Under the pieces are notes generated by a model. That model was not told the origin of the DNA and made no database searches. It saw only the letters and a list, made by a program, of their open reading frames with translations. From an uncultured Verrucomicrobiae bacterium (lineage in GTDB: Bacteria > Verrucomicrobiota > Verrucomicrobiia > Opitutales > JABDGR01), in the NCBI GenBank assembly GCA_963765205.1, contig CAVXVB010000009.1:128001-192000 (forward strand): a stretch of DNA of 64,000 nucleotides, written 5' to 3'. Every line of letters starts with the position of its first letter. Within the stretch, counting starts at the first letter, position 1. This document shows, in pieces, positions 5,908 through 64,000 of this stretch. Made by a program: the position numbers and the translations under genes.

Positions 5908-6290
5908 GCAGCACGCGAGCACGGATCAATAACAATTGCCCGCCCATTTACTGGCATGCTTGCGGGGCGCTTTTCTTGTGGCTCGAATGGTGGTCAGGAT
6001 TTTGGCGCAGCCTAAAACCGTTGCCGGAGTTGACCAATTGGGTTTCAAAACCCTGCGCGCTTGCATTTTGCAGGGTGCTTTGGGCACCATAACCCGTAGT
6101 CATGATTAAAACGCGACCCGGTTGCTCTAATGGTTAGAGCAACTGACCGGCGAATTAAAATTTGTTCAGGTCCGGTTGGCCAATCCCCAACGGGTTGCGT
6201 GGGGCATGACTGGATCATGGCCGGTTCGGCCGCATCGTCATTGGCCATGGCGGCGGTGGGTCAATTGAACTGTAAAGGTGTGCGGCTTTC

Positions 6291-6310
6291 ATTGGTGTTT
6301 AAACACCAAT
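6291..6310. promoter_or_regulatory. Perfect 20-bp palindrome, candidate operator upstream of the poly-HAMP kinase
   Basis: ATTGGTGTTTAAACACCAAT; near-copy at 15950-15969. Confidence 0.55.
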
Positions 6311-6475
6311 CGTCCGCTTTGACGCCCACCTAGGCGCGGTTGTATCTTCGCGCCCAAGCGCTGGTGGATGAGGTGTCAACCCCAAGGCACCGAACCGCCT
6401 GGCGAATTTTCCGGGCCGGGTTGATCCCGGAGGACGGGCTGCGCAGAAGGAAAGACGCAACCTTAAACGACGCCC

Positions 6476-13030
<6,555 letters not shown>

Positions 13031-52470: not shown

Positions 52471-53325
52471 GAGGCTGTCCGAAAAGTAGGCCAGTCGGCA
52501 TGGAAGGTGCTTTCGGAGTGGGATGTTTATAACTGACAAACAATGGGAGATTATAAGTCCTGTGTTGCAACGGCCCAAGCGCAGCGTGTTTGGGCGGCCC
52601 CGGGCCAACGAGCGGGAGGTGTTCGAAGCCATCCTGTTCATGCTGCACACGGGCATGCCGTGGAAGCTGCTGCCACGCAGCTTTCCCCCCAAGTCCACCG
52701 TGCATGACTACCTGCAACAGTGGAGCCAGTCGCGGGCCTTCCGCATGCTGTTCGCCCAAGTTATCCGGCACTTGATTGAGGTTGGGCGCATCGATGTGGA
52801 AGAATGCTTCGTGGACGCCACCTTTGCGGCGGCCAAGGGCGGTGGTGACGCCGTGGGGCTGTCGCCCAAGGGCAAGGGCACGAAGGTGCAGTTAGTCGTT
52901 GATGGGCAAGGCATTCCGCTGGCGCTGTCGGTGGACGCCTCTGGCGTTCCCGAACACGACATGGTGCAGCAAACGCTCGACTTGGGCCAGCCCGAGGCCC
53001 AGCCGCAACGCCTCATCGGCGACAAGGCTTACGACGTGGATGAACTGGACGAAACCCTCGCCGAACTGGGCATCGAAATGATCGCCCCGCACCGCAAAAA
53101 CCGCCGGCCCGAAAACGTCACCCAGGACGGACGACCGCGGCGCCGCTACCGCCGCCGCTGGAGAGTCGAACGCACCATCGCCTGGCTGGGCTATCACCGT
53201 CGTTTGCTCACCCGCTGGGAAAAACACGCTTCGCTCTTCTGCGCTTTTGCCACGCTCGGCTGCCTCATGATCGCGCTACGTCATCTGCCCATCACTTGAC
53301 CAAAGCAGACTTTTCGGACAGCCCC
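52471..53325 (+). mobile_element. Complete IS5-family element, 855 bp (transposase 52523-53299)
   Basis: IRs gaggctgtccgaaaagt / acttttcggacagcccc (16/17), TA on both sides; DAT, GDKAYD, RW.VERTIAWL..RRL. Confidence 0.97.
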
Positions 53326-55342: not shown

Positions 55343-55381
55343 GGCTTGACGCCGCCGCCCAAGTAGATACATCATGTGTGT

Positions 55382-55645
55382 ATGAAAACCGAAGTCGCCA
55401 CCCGCCCGTCCCGCGTCTTCCGCAACGGCAATTCCGTCGCTGTGCGGTTGCCCAACGGCTGGGCGAAACCGGGCGCTTTGATGCAAGCGCGGCGACAGGG
55501 GAAGCATATCTCCTTGGAATTGCAGGAGAAAAGACCCAAAACACTGGCGGAAGTGCTTGCGCTAATCCGTGCGGCGGGGCCGGATCCCGGGCCATTTATC
55601 CGCGAGCAGCCACCTTTTTCTGAACGAGAGTTCATGAAAGACTGA
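55382..55645 (+). CDS. vapB: VapB-like antitoxin (AbrB/MazE fold)
   Basis: VFRNGNSVAVRLP; TGATG coupling; ATACA-N7-TGTAT at start. Confidence 0.88.
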   Translation: MKTEVATRPSRVFRNGNSVAVRLPNGWAKPGALMQARRQGKHISLELQEKRPKTLAEVLALIRAAGPDPGPFIREQPPFSEREFMKD

Positions 55646-56031
55646 TGGCCTACCTTCTGGACACAAACATTTGCTCGGTCATCATCCGTGCCGAAGATGA
55701 CGCGTTTGCAAATCGCTTTTTGCAACATTGGCCCGAGGTGGCGATTTCTGCGATTACCGCCCATGAATTAGAGTTCTGGGCAAAAAACACCGGACCCAAT
55801 CTGTCTCGGCGAGTTCGCTGGCTTCTCAGCAAGCACAAAATTCTTTCTTTTGATGCCGCTGCGGGGGCAAAAGCAGCGGAGGTTAGAACCGCGTTGTTAT
55901 CGAAGCCTTTAGCCACTTACGACGCGCTCATCGCCGGGCACGCGCTGGCGCTGGGCTATGTGCTTGTGACGGCGGACGCGGATTTCAAGCGCGTGCCGGG
56001 CCTGCGCACGGAAAATTGGCTGAAAGCTTAG
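55645..56031 (+). CDS. vapC: VapC PIN toxin
   Basis: YLLDTNI, AHEL, YDALIAGHA, LVT.D.DF.RVPGL..ENW. Confidence 0.93.
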   Translation: MAYLLDTNICSVIIRAEDDAFANRFLQHWPEVAISAITAHELEFWAKNTGPNLSRRVRWLLSKHKILSFDAAAGAKAAEVRTALLSKPLATYDALIAGHALALGYVLVTADADFKRVPGLRTENWLKA

Positions 56032-56565: not shown

Positions 56566-58539
56566 TTACGACTCCGTGGTCGAGTATTTCTGCTTGAGGG
56601 CTTCGATGACGGAGGGGTCGGCGAGGGTGGTGACATTGCCGAGGGCGCGGCCTTCGGCGATGTCGCGCAGGAGCCGGCGCATGATTTTCCCCGAGCGCGT
56701 TTTTGGCAAATCCGCCGAGAAGATGATTTTTTCGGGAAGCGCGAACTTGCCGATTTTTTTTGCGACGAGGTCGTTGAGTTCGCGGATGAGGTCCGGGCCG
56801 GCGGCGTGCCCTTGCTTGACCGTGACGAAGGAAACGAGGGCCTGGCCTTTTAATTCGTGCGGGACGCCGATGACGGCGCTTTCCGCGACGGAGGGGTGCT
56901 CGACATAGACGCTTTCCAGCTCGGCGGTGCCGATGCGGTGGGCGGAGACGTTGACAACGTCGTCCACGCGGCCGAGGATCCAGTAATAGCCGTCGGCGTC
57001 CTTGCGCGCGCCGTCGCCGGGGAAATAAAACTTACCGCCCCATTTGGAGAAGTAGGTGTCCTTGAAGCGCTGGGCGTCGCCCCAGATGCCGCGCATGATG
57101 CCGGGCCAGGGTTTTTTAATGGCGAGGATGCCGGCGCGCACGTCCTGGCCCTCGTCGTTGAGGACGGCGGGTTCGATGCCAAAGAACGGGACGGTGGCGC
57201 TGCCGGGCTTGGTGGGGATGGCGCCGGGCAGGGGGGTGAGCATAATGCCGCCGGTTTCCGTCTGCCACCAGGTGTCCACGATGGGGCAGCGGCCGCCGCC
57301 GATCACATTATGATACCACATCCAAGCCTCGGGGTTGATGGACTCGCCGACGGAGCCGAGCAGGCGCAGGGAGGACAGGTCGTGCTTCTGCGGCCAAACT
57401 TCGCCCCATTTCATGCAGGCGCGGATGGCGGTGGGCGCGGTGTAGAAGACGGTGACGCCGTATCTTTCGATGATATACCAGAAGCGGTCATTCTCCGGCC
57501 AGTTGGGCACGCCCTCGAACATGACAACGGTCGCGGCATTTTGGAGCGGGCCGTAGAGGATGTAGCTGTGGCCGGTGACCCAGCCGATGTCCGCCGTGCA
57601 CCAAAAGACATCCTCGGGCTTGAGGTCGAAAATGTATTTGGTGGTGAGGTAGGTGTAAACCATGTAGCCGCCAGTGGTGTGCATGATGCCCTTGGGCTTG
57701 CCGGTCGAGCCGCTGGTGTAGAGGATGAAGAGCAGGTCCTCGGCGTCCTGGCGCGCGGGTTCGCAGTGGCGCGACTGGCCGGCGACGGCTTCGTGATACC
57801 ACACGTCGCGTCCGGGTTGCATGGTGACGGGGTGCAGTTGCTTTTGCGGTTCGCGCGCGACGACGAGCACTTTTTGCACGCTCGCGCAGGTGGCGACGCC
57901 TTCGTCCACCGTGTGTTTGAGCGGGAGGATTTTGCCGCGGCGGTAGCCGGCGTCGCCGGTGATGACGACTTTGGCCTGGCAGTCGTTGACGCGGTCCTTG
58001 ATGGACTCGGCGGAGAAGCCGCCGAAGATCACGGTGTGCGGCGCGCCGAGGCGGGCGCAGGCGAGCACGGCGATGGCCAGCTCGGGCACCATCGGCAAAT
58101 ACAGCGCGACGACATCGCCCTTGCCGACGCCGAGGCTTTTGAGCACGTTGGCAAAGAGGCAGACCTCGCGGTGCAAGTCGGCGTAGGTGAGCACGCGCTG
58201 GTCGCCGGGTTCGCCTTCGAAAATAATGGCGGCCTTGTTGCGCGTCGCGCCGTGGAGATGGCGGTCGAGGCAATTGTAAGTGATGTTGGTGACGCCGCCC
58301 TCGAACCATTTATAAAACGGCGCGTTTTTCGCATTCAGCACGGTGTGCCATTTTTGGAACCAGTGGAGTTCGCCGGCGATGTCGGCCCAGAATTTTTCGG
58401 GGTCGGCGATGCTGCGGGCATACATTTCCCGGTATTGCTCGAGGCTCTTGAGGTGCGCCGCGCGGGCGAAGGCGGCGGGCGGCGGGAAGACGCGGCTTTC
58501 CTGGGAGACGGTGTCGAATTGTGAGATGGGAGTGCTCAT
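56566..58539 (-). CDS. acs: Acetyl-CoA synthetase
   Basis: [32 protein letters not shown]. Confidence 0.97.
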
Positions 58540-58655
58540 GGGGAATGGGAGAATGGGGGGAGTGCGAGATTTTTGCAAATCGCGCGCGGCGGCAAGCCAA
58601 AAGGGCCGCACGAAAGAGCATTTCCAAGTCGGCCTGCGCGCGCCATGCTGAGGCG

Positions 58656-59754
58656 ATGGACACCGCCTTGTTCGACTACCCGCTGCCGCCGGAGCGCATC
58701 GCGCAGACGCCGGCTGAGCCGCGCGATTCCGCGCGCCTGCTAGTCGTCGAGCGCGCGACACGGCGGGTGCGGCATCATATTTTCCGCGAGCTGCCGGAGT
58801 TGCTGCCGCCGGGGACGCGGCTGTTCCGCAACCACGCCGCTGTGTTCAAGGCCCGGCTGCGCCTGCGCCGCCCAACCGGAGGGGAACTCGAATGTTTGCT
58901 GCTGCATCCCGATTTGACGCGCGTGGGCGCTAGGGAGGTTTGGTGGTGCCTGCTCAAGCCGGGGAAAAAATATCCGGTGGGGGCAACGTTTGGCTCGGAG
59001 GGCGTGTTCACCGCCACGGGTACTCGAAAAGCAGGCCGATGGCCGGGTGCTCGCGCGCTTTGACACGGCGGGCGTGGGCGGTCTGTTGGCGGTCACCGAA
59101 CGCCTCGGCGAAATGCCGCTACCGCCGTATATCCGGCGTGTCGGCGCGGAAAACGCCGCCGAAAAATTGCGCGACATGGAGAGCTATCAAACAGTTTACG
59201 CCGACCCGGCAAAAAAAATTGCCGCCGCCGCGCCCACCGCCGGGCTGCATTTCACGCCCGCCGTGCTCGCCGCCCTCGCGGCGCGCGGCGTGGCGACCTA
59301 TGATTTGGCTTTGCGCGTGGGACTCGGCACGTTCCGCCCCATCGTCGCCGAGCGCGTGGAGACGCATGTGATTCATCGCGAATGGTATGAAATTCCCGCA
59401 GAAACGCGGGTCGCATTGGCTGCGCCCGGCGGGCCGCGGTTGGCGGTGGGCACGACGACGTTGCGCGCAATCGAGGATTATTTGGCGAAGAGCGGCGGAT
59501 CTGGAGGCCCCGCCCTACCGCAGCCGTGGCTGGCGGAGGCGGACATTTTCATCTATCCGCCGCGTGAATTCGCCGGCGCGGAAATGTTGCTGACGAATTT
59601 CCATTTGCCGCGCTCGACGCTGCTCTGTCTGGTCAGCGCCTTCCTGACGCCGGGCGCGACCGACGGCATCGCGTGGCTCAAGGAAATCTACGCCGAGGCC
59701 GGCGCGCGCGGCTACCGTTTTTACAGCTTCGGCGATGCAATGTTGATCCTTTGA
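58656..59754 (+). CDS. queA: QueA, split by an extra G at 59018-59020
   Basis: [19 protein letters not shown]; then [43 protein letters not shown]. Confidence 0.92.
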
Positions 59755-59807: not shown

Positions 59808-60805
59808 TAGCATTTTAAATAAAACTATAACCACAATGGGCAAACCAATGAGTGGCGTCCTGTCCGGTGACGCTGCCTAGGGCGGTGGCGATGGCGGCGA
59901 GCAAGTCTGCCTGGGTGCGTGCTTCGAGAGCCCGCAACCGGGCTTTGACTTTGCTCCGCATCAGTTCGATCGGATTGAGGTCGGGTGAGTAGGCGGGCAG
60001 GAATCGCACTTGCGCTCCGGCTGCTTCGATCAGCGCGAGGGTTTGCGGGTTTTTATGCGGGGCAAGGTTGTCCATGGCCACAATGTCCCCGGGCCGCAAG
60101 GTTGGGCAGAGCACCTCGCGCACATAGGCCCGGAAGACTTCCGTATCGGTGGCCGCTTCGACGGTTAGACAGGCCGTCGTGCCGTCCCTGCGAATGGAGG
60201 AGATCATGGTCGTGGTGCACCAGTGCCCCTGGGGGCGTTGGGCCAGCAGACGTTGCGCCCGGGGCGCGCGCCCATATAAACGGGTCATGTTCGTCTTGGC
60301 CGCCGATTCATCAAGGAAGACCAGCCGCGCGGGATCCAGTCCGGCCTGCCCGCGCACCCACCGCCGCCGTGCCCGGACGATGTCGGGCCGCCCTTGCTCG
60401 GCGGCGCGCAGCGTTTTTTAAAGGTCAGGCCCAGCTGGGCCAAAACGTAATGAATGGCCGGCAGCGTGCACTTTAAACCCAAGGCCGCGCGCATCTGTTC
60501 CAGCGTAAGGTCGGGCTTGGACTGCACCAGCCGGCGCAACTTCTCTCCAAACTGGGGCAGCAGCCACGCCTTGCGTCCCGCGAAGTGGTGCCGGGGCGCG
60601 ATATCACCCTTATGCCGGCGCTGCTGCAGCAGCTTTTTGACCATGCCGAGCGACACCCTAAACCGGTGCGCGATTTCCTCCCTTGTTCCCTCCTGCCGAT
60701 CATAGGCCGCCACAATACGTTCCCGCAAGTCCAAGGATAGAGTTTTCATTCCCCCTACAGTAGCACAACTCATGCCAGGCGGCTACATAATTATTTAAAA
60801 TGCTC
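59808..60805 (-). mobile_element. IS630-family element (orfA starts 60749, orfB ends 59815)
   Basis: IRs tagcattttaaataa / ttatttaaaatgctc (14/15), TA duplication; SLDLRERIV; FLDES, MDN, YSPDLNPIE. Confidence 0.95.
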
Positions 60806-60950
60806 TAAGCGCGGGGTGGAGGTCGCTCTCCGGGGAGCATCCAACATCGAACTCTCGATGAAAACAAGAAATCTCGACAGTCAGTCTCTTAATTTCGAGG
60901 GTGCAGCAAGCCTGCGCCCAATTCCACGCCTTTTTAGTCTCAAATCGCAA

Positions 60951-60966
60951 TGTTCCATGTGGAACA
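60951..60966. promoter_or_regulatory. parS-like site
   Basis: TGTTCCATGTGGAACA, one mismatch from palindromic TGTTCCACGTGGAACA. Confidence 0.7.
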
Positions 60967-61098
60967 TTTATCAATCATTTTGAGCAGAGTGCTTGACAGC
61001 GTAATTTCTACTATTGTCAGTGCCGCTTTGGGTATACCTTTTGTTATTGCTTTTTCCATTACCACAACGATATAAACGATTGAAAAATAACCATACAC

Positions 61099-61340
61099 AT
61101 GACTTTGAATCTAATTACTTTGGAAATCGCAGCATTGATGGCTCAAGATCCTGGCGAGGCCCGCAAGGGCGGCTTCCAAAGTCTTCTCATAAAACTCCAG
61201 CGTCAATACGACCCGGCAACGCGCACGATAACGATCAGTAATGCTGATTTAGAAAAAATCCAGCGCTATGCCTTTTAGTATAAATCAGGTGGCTGGCAAG
61301 GATTCCTCAAAACGATTTTCGGCCGCAGTCTAGGTGACAT
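61099..61340 (+). pseudogene. Small low-GC ORF interrupted by in-frame TAG (61276-61278); 3' end uncertain
   Basis: QDP...KGGFQSLL..LQ..DLEKIQRYAF*YKSGGWQ..LKTIFGRSLG. Confidence 0.45.
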
Positions 61341-61573
61341 CCGCAGGCGTCCAATCGCTGCCTGTGCCGCTAGGCAATGGGCTTGTTGCTCATGTTCCAT
61401 ATCCGATGACAGAGGCGGCTTTCGAGATGCTAAAAAAGGCACTCGACCTCTATAAGGGCATGATTGTTTCTTCCTCCACTAAGCCATCGCCAGAAGAACA
61501 ATAAAACCGAGGTCGGTCACAAGTTCGTTTTTGCTTGTAATTAAGGTTTTTAGGGCCAAATAGTTTTGACGCT

Positions 61574-61768
61574 ATGGAAAATTATTTTTACATTCCAAAC
61601 GCTGGCGAGCAACCGCCAGCTAAACTACCGCAACACCCCGACCCATCTGCACACTCGGTTGCGGGCGACAGTAGTTATTTACGCGTAAAAGTTGGCGATA
61701 AAATTACGTGGCAAGGACGTGATTACATTATAAAAGAAATAAAAGAAACCGGTGTTGTCTGGGGATAA
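61574..61768 (+). CDS. Small hypothetical protein, low GC
   Basis: 64-aa ATG ORF; VKVGDKITWQGRDYIIKEI beta-rich pattern. Confidence 0.45.
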   Translation: MENYFYIPNAGEQPPAKLPQHPDPSAHSVAGDSSYLRVKVGDKITWQGRDYIIKEIKETGVVWG

Positions 61769-61956
61769 ATTTTAGAGCGCAAATTGGGTTTTGTAAAAAA
61801 GCCCACCTCAAAACCGGACACTACCCTTTGTTTCCGCGCGCTTGACGCTACCCGCCCGCCTGCTAGGATTGTTAGGCATCCGTGTCATCCGTGGTCCAAT
61901 GAAACTGCGGAAAATAGGTTTTCTTCACCTTGCCTCCGCCCGCGATTTCTCCTCCG

Positions 61957-62940
61957 ATGAAAGAGCCGCCTAAAATATCGCCGGGCGAGATCACGCCGCC
62001 CGCCGTGTATTTCAACCGCCGGAATTTTATGAAGGCGGGGATCGTGGCGGCCAGCGCGGTGGCCACCGGCTACGTCTATCGGCGGCTCAACCATGTCAGC
62101 ACGGCCACGGTGGACACGCCGGCGCTCGAAGGCCTCACGACGACCGCCCCCGCCGCGTCCGACGTGTCCGCGGGTTTTCGCGCCACCGACGCGGAGACGC
62201 CCATCGAGTATATTACCCATTACAACAATTTCTACGAATTCTCGACTGACAAGCAGGCGGTGGCGGACGCCGCGGCGAAATTTACCACGGAGAACTGGCG
62301 GGTGTCCGTCGAGGGGCTGGTGGCCAAGCCGCGCGTCTTTGACCTCGCCGACTTGCTGAAGATCAGCCCGCCGGAAGAGCGCGTGTATCGCATGCGCTGC
62401 GTCGAGGGCTGGTCCATGGTCGTGCCCTGGGCGGGTTATTCGCTGTCCAAATTGCTCGCCGTGGTCGAGCCGCTCAGTTCCGCCAAATATGTCGCCTTCG
62501 AGTCGCTGCTCGACCCCCGGCGGATGCCGGGCCAGTTGGCCGACGTGCTCGAATGGCCCTATCTCGAAGGCTTGCGGATGGATGAGGCGCTGCACCCGCT
62601 GACGCTGCTCACCAGCGGGTTGTATGGCCGCGCGCTGCCGCCGCAGGACGGCGCGCCCATCCGCCTCGTCACGCCGTGGAAATACGGATTCAAGGGCATC
62701 AAATCCATCGTGAAGATCAAGCTGGTCGCCACGCAGCCGCCGACGTCCTGGAGCAAGGCGGCGCCGAATGAATACGGCTTCTACGCCAACGTGAACCCGC
62801 AGGTAGACCACCCGCGCTGGAGCCAGGCGACGGAGCAGCGCATCGGCGAATCAGGCCGCCGCCCGACGCTCATATTTAACGGCTACGCGGAGCAGGTCGC
62901 CTCGATGTATGCGGGGATGGACCTGCGCGCGAATTTCTGA
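61957..62940 (+). CDS. msrP: Periplasmic methionine sulfoxide reductase, Mo catalytic subunit
   Basis: EITP..NRRNFMK Tat motif; [38 protein letters not shown]. Confidence 0.97.
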
Positions 62941-62955
62941 CCGGGGCGCCCCACG

Positions 62956-64000
62956 ATGAAAGACATTCGCTTCGCCAAGTTTCTCATGCTCGTCAACGGC
63001 GGCGTGCCGCTGGCGCTCCTGGCGTGGGACGCCGCGCACCATCAGCTCGGGGCCAACCCGGTGAATTTCGCGATCCTCACCACCGGCATGTTGACGCTGG
63101 TCTTTTTGATGCTGACGCTGCTGGTGACGCCGATTCGCAAAATCACCGGCTGGAACTCGCTGATTTTCTCGCGGCGCACGTTCGGGCTTTACGCCTTTTT
63201 CTACGGCTGCCTGCATTTCCTCATTTTTTTCGGCCTCAGCCTCGACCATCCGTTCAGCGTCTCGAATGCGTTGTCGGAAATGTTCAAGCGCAAATACCTC
63301 TTCGTGGGCATCACCGCGCTGCTGCTCATGGTGCCGCTGGCGCTGACTTCGAGCAACGCGATGATCAAGCGCCTCGGCGGCCCGCGCTGGCGGGCGCTCC
63401 ACCGGCTCGTTTACGTCGTCGCGATTCTGGGCGTGATTCACTTTTATATGCAAGTGAAGGCCGACGTGCGGCTGCCGCTGGCGTTTGCCGCCGTGCTGGC
63501 GATTCTGCTCGGCTTCCGGCTGGTCGCGCTCCGCCGCCGTCCCCTGCCCGCGCCCGTCGTGGCCCCGCAACCGAAAATCTGGACCGGCTCAATGCGCGTG
63601 GTGCGCATCATTGAGGAAACGCCCGATGTGCGCACGTTCCGCCTCGCTACCACCGATGGCCTTTCGCTCCCGTTTTTTCACCAACCCGGCCAATACTTGG
63701 TGCTCTCGCTGCTGATTGACGGGCAAAAAGTCAACCGCACCTACACCATTTCCTCCTCGCCCACCCAGACCGCCCATTGCGAAATAACGGTCAAGCGCGA
63801 AGAAAACGGCCACGTCTCGCGCCACCTCCATGAGGTGCTTCGCGAAGGCGACGTGGTCAAGGTAACCGCGCCCGCCGGCCGCTTCACCTTCAACGGCACC
63901 CAGGCCAACAGCATTGTGCTGATCGCCGGCGGCGTGGGCATCACGCCGTTGATGGCCATGCTGCGCTACCTGACCGACCAGCGCTGGACGGGCGAAATTC
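62956..64000 (+). CDS. msrQ: MsrQ heme-membrane subunit fused to an FAD/NAD(P)H (FNR-like) domain; partial, not in the ORF track
   Basis: Single open frame: RR.FGLYAFFY..LH, PLALTS, W..LHRLVY, IHF; then PGQY, RTYTISS, VKR...G.VS, IAGGVGITP. Confidence 0.92.
   Translation, partial: MKDIRFAKFLMLVNGGVPLALLAWDAAHHQLGANPVNFAILTTGMLTLVFLMLTLLVTPIRKITGWNSLIFSRRTFGLYAFFYGCLHFLIFFGLSLDHPFSVSNALSEMFKRKYLFVGITALLLMVPLALTSSNAMIKRLGGPRWRALHRLVYVVAILGVIHFYMQVKADVRLPLAFAAVLAILLGFRLVALRRRPLPAPVVAPQPKIWTGSMRVVRIIEETPDVRTFRLATTDGLSLPFFHQPGQYLVLSLLIDGQKVNRTYTISSSPTQTAHCEITVKREENGHVSRHLHEVLREGDVVKVTAPAGRFTFNGTQANSIVLIAGGVGITPLMAMLRYLTDQRWTGEI

Follow-up and report, generated by a model that had tools for sequence, protein, structure and literature searches.

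A one-chain MsrQ–reductase fusion behind msrP, with NAD(P)H as its probable electron donor

How the membrane cytochrome MsrQ obtains electrons for its partner MsrP is disputed: genetics points to quinones, biochemistry to NADH by way of the flavin reductase Fre, and potentials reported in 2025 speak against quinones (PMC12525009). The question is raised again by a 64,000-nt stretch of DNA from an uncultured Verrucomicrobiae bacterium (GenBank assembly GCA_963765205.1, contig CAVXVB010000009.1, positions 128,001 to 192,000), which is called the window below. At its 3′ end, msrP is followed by a gene whose product would carry an MsrQ-type membrane domain and a complete reductase module in a single chain. 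G000, the genome of origin, was assembled into 12 contigs (92% complete), in which the window corresponds to G000:C9:128001-192000.

The msrP–fusion pair

The msrP gene (61957–62940, + strand; 327 aa) encodes the molybdopterin catalytic subunit of the periplasmic protein-methionine-sulfoxide reductase. After a gap of 15 nt, the next gene starts at 62956 on the same strand and reaches the end of the window at 64000 without a stop codon, giving 348 residues in the window. A first-pass annotation made from the letters alone had described this open frame; the contig extends it to C9:192644, outside the window, for a full product of 562 aa. Pfam found four domains in this product, all above cut-off: Ferric_reduct (residues 43–160), FAD_binding_6 (214–311), NAD_binding_1 (322–424) and Fer2 (482–554). 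The pairing of msrP with a downstream one-chain MsrQ–reductase, as that annotation had proposed, was borne out by NCBIfam, Pfam and 119 homologues; the C-terminal 2Fe-2S domain that it had guessed might follow is present beyond the window, with cysteines C512, C517, C520 and C550.

The homologue set comprised the best 120 of 1851 matches, query included, and all counts out of 120 refer to it. The 119 other members, from several source collections, were 64–81% identical to the query. Because they align over 91–100% of its length, the fusion is neither a chance product nor an assembly slip. All four Pfam domains occurred together in 118 of the 119 according to a precomputed list, where P0019 appears without Fer2, and in automatic annotation one name already showed both halves. 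A further 20 proteins, similar to the membrane, FNR and Fer2 parts and as little as 41% identical in the membrane part, came from searching 50%-identity representatives with a profile. The nearest named record is an Opitutaceae metagenome-assembled genome (L002), and a distant full-length member is found in a named cultured organism, Alienimonas californiensis (WP_165700731.1). Among 2003 matching plasmid records one covered 80% of the query; the 30 records listed, to which it does not belong, matched the reductase part only. A 614-aa frame covering the MsrQ match in genome G101 was discarded as a spurious long frame and not a fusion.

The position behind msrP was regular. In 49 of 60 metagenome loci, msrP ends 12–33 nt upstream of the fusion gene, and the other 11 have no readable upstream DNA (two hold less than 90 nt and nine cut the gene start). 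The same arrangement was seen in G002, G003, G006, G451, G833, G1045, L015, L016, G1307 and G1314. By group, it was present in all three of the six same-genus genomes that have the fusion, in three of the 401 genomes sampled, centre included, from the phylum of the Phycisphaerae locus, and in three of 301 sampled, centre included, from the phylum of the Kofleriaceae locus, which held 68 weaker matches besides. These genomes are kin from one lineage and do not count as independent trials. In the 15 fusion loci with listed flanking open reading frames (ORFs), no common neighbour besides msrP stood out by eye. The first-pass annotation had proposed a survey of msrP neighbours for the fusion; msrP did lie upstream wherever the DNA could be read, and some kin carry a stand-alone or broken MsrQ.

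The MsrP of the window scored 454.8 bits with NCBIfam NF003767 (cut-off 207) and matched Pfam Oxidored_molyb; its gene is the only one of that family, and the only MsrP-like one, found in G000 (92% complete), which has a single ferric reductase domain (FRD) gene. Cys148 (62398–62400, + strand), in the motif MRCVE, aligns with the E. coli MsrP cysteine and is presumably the molybdenum ligand. A twin arginine (62017–62022, + strand) marks a twin-arginine translocation (Tat)-type signal; the Pfam TAT_signal score of 19.9 bits falls below the cut-off of 22.7, and an AxA cleavage site is not obvious. The genome also holds tatC, moaA and moeA.

In this signal (window 62014–62090) a hydrophobic stretch is followed by YRRLN, and a like pattern, ending in Y-R-[RK]-L-N, occurs in related loci, with YRTF in the sister group. 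Such signals stand beside fused and stand-alone MsrQ alike. From their sequences, these MsrP proteins may stay membrane-anchored.

The system resembles E. coli MsrPQ (YedYZ) in the msrP–msrQ pairing, in an MsrP that is 51% identical, in an MsrQ model score above cut-off and in eight conserved membrane-domain residues (see below). It differs in that the likely donor is part of the same chain, rather than the separate flavin reductase Fre, and in the additional [2Fe-2S] domain. A separate Fre-like gene was not found in G000 (92% complete), where the one other NAD_binding_1 protein is a CysJ-like flavoprotein by eye.

Some of these combinations have precedents. Long forms with FRD, FAD and NAD domains, and SpNOX, are already known (PMC5676040), as are ‘MsrQ-like’ PF01794 proteins with PF00175 in flavinylation clusters, for which two hemes are predicted (PMC8238504, PMC11334425), and MsrP–MsrQ-like fusions (PMC5449189). 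MsrQ itself was stated in 2025 to be without a cytosolic dehydrogenase domain (PMC12525009). In the literature searched, in which several key MsrQ papers were not covered in full, we found no account of a genuine MsrQ joined to FNR–Fer2 behind msrP. The title of a 2004 paper by von Rozycki reportedly mentions YedZ fused to electron carriers. What appears to be new here, judged from the sequence, is an MsrPQ variant with MsrQ, FNR and [2Fe-2S] domains in one chain behind msrP.

An MsrQ with its own NAD(P)H reductase, paired with msrP in three phyla, gives comparative support to the cytoplasmic-donor model. MsrP and the fusion also make a two-protein system that could be reconstituted without guessing the donor. 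For FRD evolution, the protein fills a gap: by prediction it is a bacterial form that has one heme and a dehydrogenase fused at its C-terminus.

Membrane domain and reductase module

The membrane domain (residues 1–195; 62956–63540, + strand) is of MsrQ type and has six long predicted helices; Pfam matched it, and residues 4–193 scored 158.7 bits with the NCBIfam MsrQ model NF003831 (cut-off 130). AlphaFold2 placed the helices at residues 4–28, 35–64, 69–94, 113–130, 142–149 with 151–166, and 172–194. In the alignment, R77, R78, H91, L131, S135, W147, H151 and H164 of E. coli MsrQ correspond to R73, R74, H87, L128, S132, W145, H149 and H162, each of which is present in 120/120 sequences. The same eight residues were kept in 20 distant fusion representatives, except for one R74K and one fragment without the arginine pair.

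In E. coli MsrQ, H91 and H164 ligate a single heme, R77, R78 and H151 are needed for flavin mononucleotide (FMN), and Arg77 occupies the position of a NOX heme histidine (PMC12525009). An arginine at the first canonical histidine is likewise the YedZ/STEAP signature, whereas bacterial long-form FRDs keep four histidines (PMC3591440). By this correspondence R73–R74 (63172–63177) would belong to the FMN site, with arginine in place of the first NOX heme histidine; H87 (63214–63216) and H162 (63439–63441) are the predicted heme b ligands; and H149 (63400–63402) is a predicted FMN-stacking histidine (all + strand). Because R73 stands at the first NOX histidine and all E. coli FMN-site residues are kept in 120/120, the membrane domain is predicted to hold one heme b plus FMN, as in MsrQ and STEAP. 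The first-pass annotation had correctly placed H87, H149, H162, the proline-rich linker and the motifs RTYTISS (261–267) and GGVGITP (325–331), but its count of three heme-type histidines does not hold: three heme ligands were rejected, as only H87 and H162 are predicted to bind heme and H149 aligns with E. coli H151, reported to hold FMN.

The protein shares with STEAP2–4 one heme and a flavin in the membrane domain and a fused cytosolic reductase (PMC12525009, PMC3591440). In STEAP, however, the reductase is N-terminal (PF03807), the flavin is FAD (flavin adenine dinucleotide) and the acceptors are metal chelates; here an FNR–Fer2 module is C-terminal and the acceptor is likely to be MsrP. 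MsrQ in its stand-alone form has about 200 residues and no dehydrogenase domain. The 562-aa protein, with FAD, NAD and Fer2 domains, departs from that form and on its sequence is a variant of MsrQ, not canonical MsrQ. A comparison of membrane-domain residues between 55 fused sequences and 8 nested plus 20 sister stand-alone sequences gave clade-level differences only, with no interface signature.

The membrane domain is followed by linker 1, a Pro/Ala-rich segment of variable sequence and length (residues 191–208; 63526–63579, + strand), which among the 120 sequences has a mean identity of 35% and 17–44 residues, mostly 17–22. The flavin-binding beta-barrel of an FNR-type reductase comes next (63595–63888, + strand; Pfam match 214–311), with RTYTISS at 63736–63756 and R261, Y263 and S267 invariant in 120/120. 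The NAD(P)H-binding domain begins at 63919 and occupies the remainder of the window (63919–64000, + strand), continuing to residue ∼445; it has GGVGITP at 63928–63948, and G326, G328, T330, P331, C417-G-P, E443 and the terminal aromatic residue F445 are invariant in 120/120. A second linker of 23–45 residues, flexible by prediction, leads to the C-terminal [2Fe-2S] ferredoxin domain (residues 482–554; G000:C9:192399-192617, + strand, outside the window), whose cluster cysteines C512, C517 and C550 are found in 120/120 and C520 in 119/120. Mean identity among the 120 was 77% for the membrane part, 69% for the reductase part and 33–35% for the linkers. The AlphaFold2 model had a mean predicted local distance difference test score (pLDDT) of 85, falling below 50 at 198–204 and 449–475, i.e. 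in the linkers.

By domain order and motifs, residues 209–562 resemble phthalate dioxygenase reductase (PDR), Hcr, PaaE and GbcB, and on this sequence evidence the soluble part is a reductase of the GbcB/Hcr/PaaE layout, with FNR and C-terminal [2Fe-2S] domains. Orthology to GbcB, Hcr or PaaE was not supported, since the NCBIfam scores of the soluble part were below cut-off for GbcB (244 of 500 bits), Hcr (205 of 383) and PaaE (178 of 421). The identity of the reductase part as Fre was also rejected (NF005963, 77.6 bits, far below the cut-off of 230). Fold matches of the fusion were flavohemoglobin, PDR and SpNOX; PDR (2pia) was the second-best, and the best query TM-score 0.43, among the matches listed. 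PDR, Hcr, PaaE and GbcB are soluble and feed cytoplasmic enzymes, whereas the window protein is joined to a cytochrome in the membrane. The closest relatives with solved structures suggest that the flavin of the FNR domain is FAD rather than FMN.

Residue 383 is Ser or Thr in 120/120 and residue 384 is Arg in 119/120. Residue 383 aligns with the Asp of the ‘TLDR’ motif of cytochrome b5 reductase, which we take to be D239. A review table lists D239T as a switch from NAD to NADP (PMC5817062). By this analogy, S/T383–R384 give a hint of NADPH preference.

The electron route and its alternatives

The first-pass annotation had proposed that NAD(P)H supplies the electrons for MsrP, and the FNR-type module in the same chain supports this at the level of sequence. 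We consider it probable that NAD(P)H is the donor, whether the electrons pass internally via the cluster or directly to the membrane flavin. As to the path itself, we lean towards NAD(P)H > FAD > [2Fe-2S] > FMN > heme b > MsrP.

In PDR, Hcr and GbcB, hydride is transferred to FAD, which passes one-electron steps to the cluster. On the same layout, cytoplasmic NAD(P)H would give hydride to the FAD of the FNR domain, and the FAD would pass single electrons to the [2Fe-2S] cluster; the tethered ferredoxin domain would swing on the flexible linker 2 to the membrane FMN. From there electrons would pass, by way of the single heme b that is predicted, to the molybdenum of MsrP, an enzyme that probably repairs oxidized methionines outside the inner membrane. 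The single heme with FMN, and MsrP as the acceptor, are read across from E. coli MsrQ by analogy. The earlier proposal had electrons pass straight from FAD to heme; the FMN-site residues conserved in 120/120 place a predicted membrane FMN between the two.

The route through the cluster is preferred because of the FNR plus C-terminal ferredoxin layout, the near-invariant cluster cysteines and the opposite charges of an acidic ferredoxin domain (14 D/E versus 9 K/R) and a basic membrane domain (21 K/R versus 5 D/E). The tethered ferredoxin domain could thus meet the membrane domain. A complex prediction for the two domains with FMN and 2Fe-2S scored 0.10 against a mark of 0.32 and was counted neither way.

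More tentatively, and at somewhat long odds, the protein may be a four-cofactor wire in one chain (FAD, [2Fe-2S], FMN, heme b), in which the ferredoxin on its tether hands electrons from NADPH to the MsrQ flavin where it sits, so that the flavin shuttle proposed with Fre is replaced. MsrQ-type domains would then have captured such modules on two or more occasions, one serving MsrP and another next to a multiheme cytochrome, as a general means of exporting cytoplasmic reducing power.

Several observations weigh against the route to MsrP through the cluster. PDR-type clusters have potentials of about −170 to −220 mV. In E. coli the values are ∼−250 mV for the MsrQ heme, −340 mV for FMN, −250 mV for the molybdenum of MsrP, +110 mV for ubiquinone and −70 mV for menaquinone (PMC12525009). 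If the FMN here lies at −340 mV as in E. coli and the cluster is PDR-like, the step from cluster to FMN would be uphill. Quinones are genetically required for E. coli MsrPQ activity (PMC12525009). The same FNR–Fer2 module also sits behind many other, unrelated N-terminal domains, and genome G300, in which msrP was not found, encodes a divergent fusion of MsrQ type. Because the module has varied partners and this second fusion occurs without msrP, architecture alone is no proof that MsrP is the acceptor. The predicted template modelling score (pTM) of the AlphaFold2 model, 0.53, leaves the relative placement of the domains unfixed. Finally, although most of the clade keeps the reductase module, some of its members can do without it.

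The most serious alternative, though a less likely one, is that the FNR domain, in the manner of a Fre on a tether, passes electrons straight to the membrane FMN, either flavin-to-flavin or by FMN shuttling between the two sites. The [2Fe-2S] cluster would then buffer electrons off the main path or supply another partner. It would agree with the E. coli model, in which FMN travels back and forth between MsrQ and the active site of Fre (PMC12525009), with the FAD domain being the one attached directly to the last helix, through a linker that mostly has 17–22 residues, and with the lack of an uphill step to an FMN at −340 mV. The module, however, fits bound-flavin FNR–Fer2 reductases (GbcB 244 bits, Hcr 205) far better than Fre (77.6), it keeps the terminal aromatic F445 in 120/120, and near-invariant cluster cysteines would be unexpected in a dispensable side branch.

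We regard it as improbable that the quinone pool feeds MsrP while the fused reductase reduces quinone, drains excess electrons or, anchored at the membrane, supplies a cytoplasmic enzyme. Deletions in the quinone pathway abolish E. coli MsrPQ activity and MsrQ binds quinone (PMC12525009); the reductase was likely lost at least twice with msrP and the membrane domain retained; and menD is present in G000. The futalosine-pathway gene mqnA was searched for and not found. Set against this reading, quinones are far more positive than the E. coli MsrQ heme and MsrP molybdenum; the potentials speak against quinones, and the paper that reports them prefers NADH acting through Fre, with FMN going to and fro between the two proteins (PMC12525009). 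Nor did a common neighbour other than msrP stand out in the 15 fusion loci.

Still less probable is a role as a bacterial NOX, or as a ferric reductase of the long form, acting on oxygen or metal chelates instead of MsrP. The first-pass annotation had seen a NOX architecture, and the likeness in one respect is real: a single chain in which FAD and NAD(P)H domains come after a membrane FRD, as in SpNOX and the ‘MsrQ-like’ PF01794 plus PF00175 proteins, is the core of NOX and FRE (PMC3591440), and SpNOX chains match residues 58–432 both by sequence (E ∼2e-14) and by fold. NOX and long-form FRDs, however, carry two hemes on four histidines, in some cases by prediction (the criterion taken from PMC5676040 and PMC3591440), whereas here the first is arginine in 120/120, a ferredoxin domain that NOX lacks is added and msrP lies upstream wherever the DNA is readable. 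As the four histidines of two bis-histidine heme motifs are not all there, membership of NOX was rejected. Moreover, four-histidine FRD + FNR + Fer2 proteins do exist and are clearly distinct (P0161, P0205, P0223, P0232, P0239).

That the fusion is an artefact of sequencing or assembly joining two separate genes can be dismissed for the family, for although G000 is itself a 12-contig, 92% complete assembly, 119 homologues from several collections cross the junction and a complete fused frame was present in 44 fetched loci, one of which (L036) belongs to the divergent second family. In contigs from four sequencing runs over the region no insertions or deletions were listed; of the 30 pieces listed (157 more exist) none spans the linker. 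No RNA run was among the sequencing runs listed.

Distribution, a second family and neighbouring genes

The fusion forms a rare clade whose members come from Verrucomicrobiota, Planctomycetota and Myxococcota. Among 401 genomes of the bacterium's own phylum, eight had an MsrQ-family match, fused only in G000 and G300; in the order to which G178 belongs, 251 genomes yielded 34 matches to stand-alone MsrQ and none along the full length.

A tree was built from MsrP concatenated with the MsrQ membrane domain; of 83 rows that had both proteins, 67 were used after manual removal of 16 near-duplicates. Every fused or broken form fell within a single branch of 51 rows (support 100/99), with the stand-alone L095 and L005–L012 nested inside. 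Three changes suffice to explain this pattern, and forcing the 42 fused or broken rows into one clade was rejected (p-AU 0.0005); the root rests on the long E. coli branch, and long branches meet, as the tool warned. One gain of the reductase module and at least two losses are likely on this evidence. The membrane domain of L095 (L095:4001-4639) is 91% identical to that of the window protein and stops just past the linker. Loss of the reductase there is supported because the tail of the protein looks like what is left of the first FAD-domain strand, and the 4 kb downstream contain no reductase. The L005–L012 group is stand-alone, L012 being cut by a contig end; in L014, L016, L084, L096 and L099, breaks or internal shortening affect the reductase part or its vicinity, some possibly through assembly errors. 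For the clade as a whole, the term ‘hard-wired’ that had been applied to the system is thus too strong, as close relatives lost or broke the reductase part. The window protein and L095 make a natural control pair with and without the module.

The second fusion, in G300 (L039:4558-6279, − strand; P0124), has 573 aa, the same domain order and the same RR/H/H/H signature, and is only ∼32–41% identical per domain to the window protein. Its gene follows an ORF for a multi-CxxCH cytochrome c-like protein (7883–9925) and a barrel-like ORF (6288–7883); msrP was not found in this 99% complete genome. The family is small (homologues P0275–P0291), with named members in Puniceicoccus vermicola, Cerasicoccus and Methyloprofundus. 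It is likely, from the sequences, to be an independent fusion, and it suggests that the MsrQ–reductase architecture can serve other acceptors. This case widens the interest of the architecture and cautions against inferring function from domains alone.

The four-histidine (two-heme type) proteins P0161, P0205, P0223, P0232 and P0239 are a separate architecture that differs at the R73 position. An FRD protein with a ferredoxin domain has already been listed as architecture M8, known here by its figure legend alone (PMC3591440); in the supplements of that paper, as far as they were available, no rows are labelled Fer2 or ferredoxin. As a guess, M8 may be of the four-histidine kind, such as P0161.

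The closest kin of the FNR–Fer2 module (45–50% identity) are often fused to an N-terminal region of 190–350 aa with no Pfam match. In the few examined these regions are His/Met-rich, with one or two predicted membrane helices, and they make up an unannotated family that includes many of P0148–P0231 (loci L111, L113, L116, L144, L145, L147–L150 and L174–L179).

Upstream of msrP, six sigma-70-like sites were found (0.9 expected), two of them on the + strand; the region is partly AT-rich and the sites are consensus matches only. An AT-rich stretch lies between an insertion sequence and msrP (60800–61900; 46% GC against 61% for the window), and no ORF of at least 80 aa begins there on the + strand. 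The insertion sequence (59815–60773, − strand) is a two-ORF transposase-like element, IS630-like by eye, and a transposase-like gene at 52523–53299 (+ strand) is IS5-like by eye; both labels follow motifs that we take to be diagnostic. A queA-like gene at 58740–59754 (+ strand) is seemingly split across two frames (ORFs 58521–59063 and 58990–59754), and a vapBC-like antitoxin/PIN-domain pair lies at 55376–56031 (+ strand), both labelled by eye.

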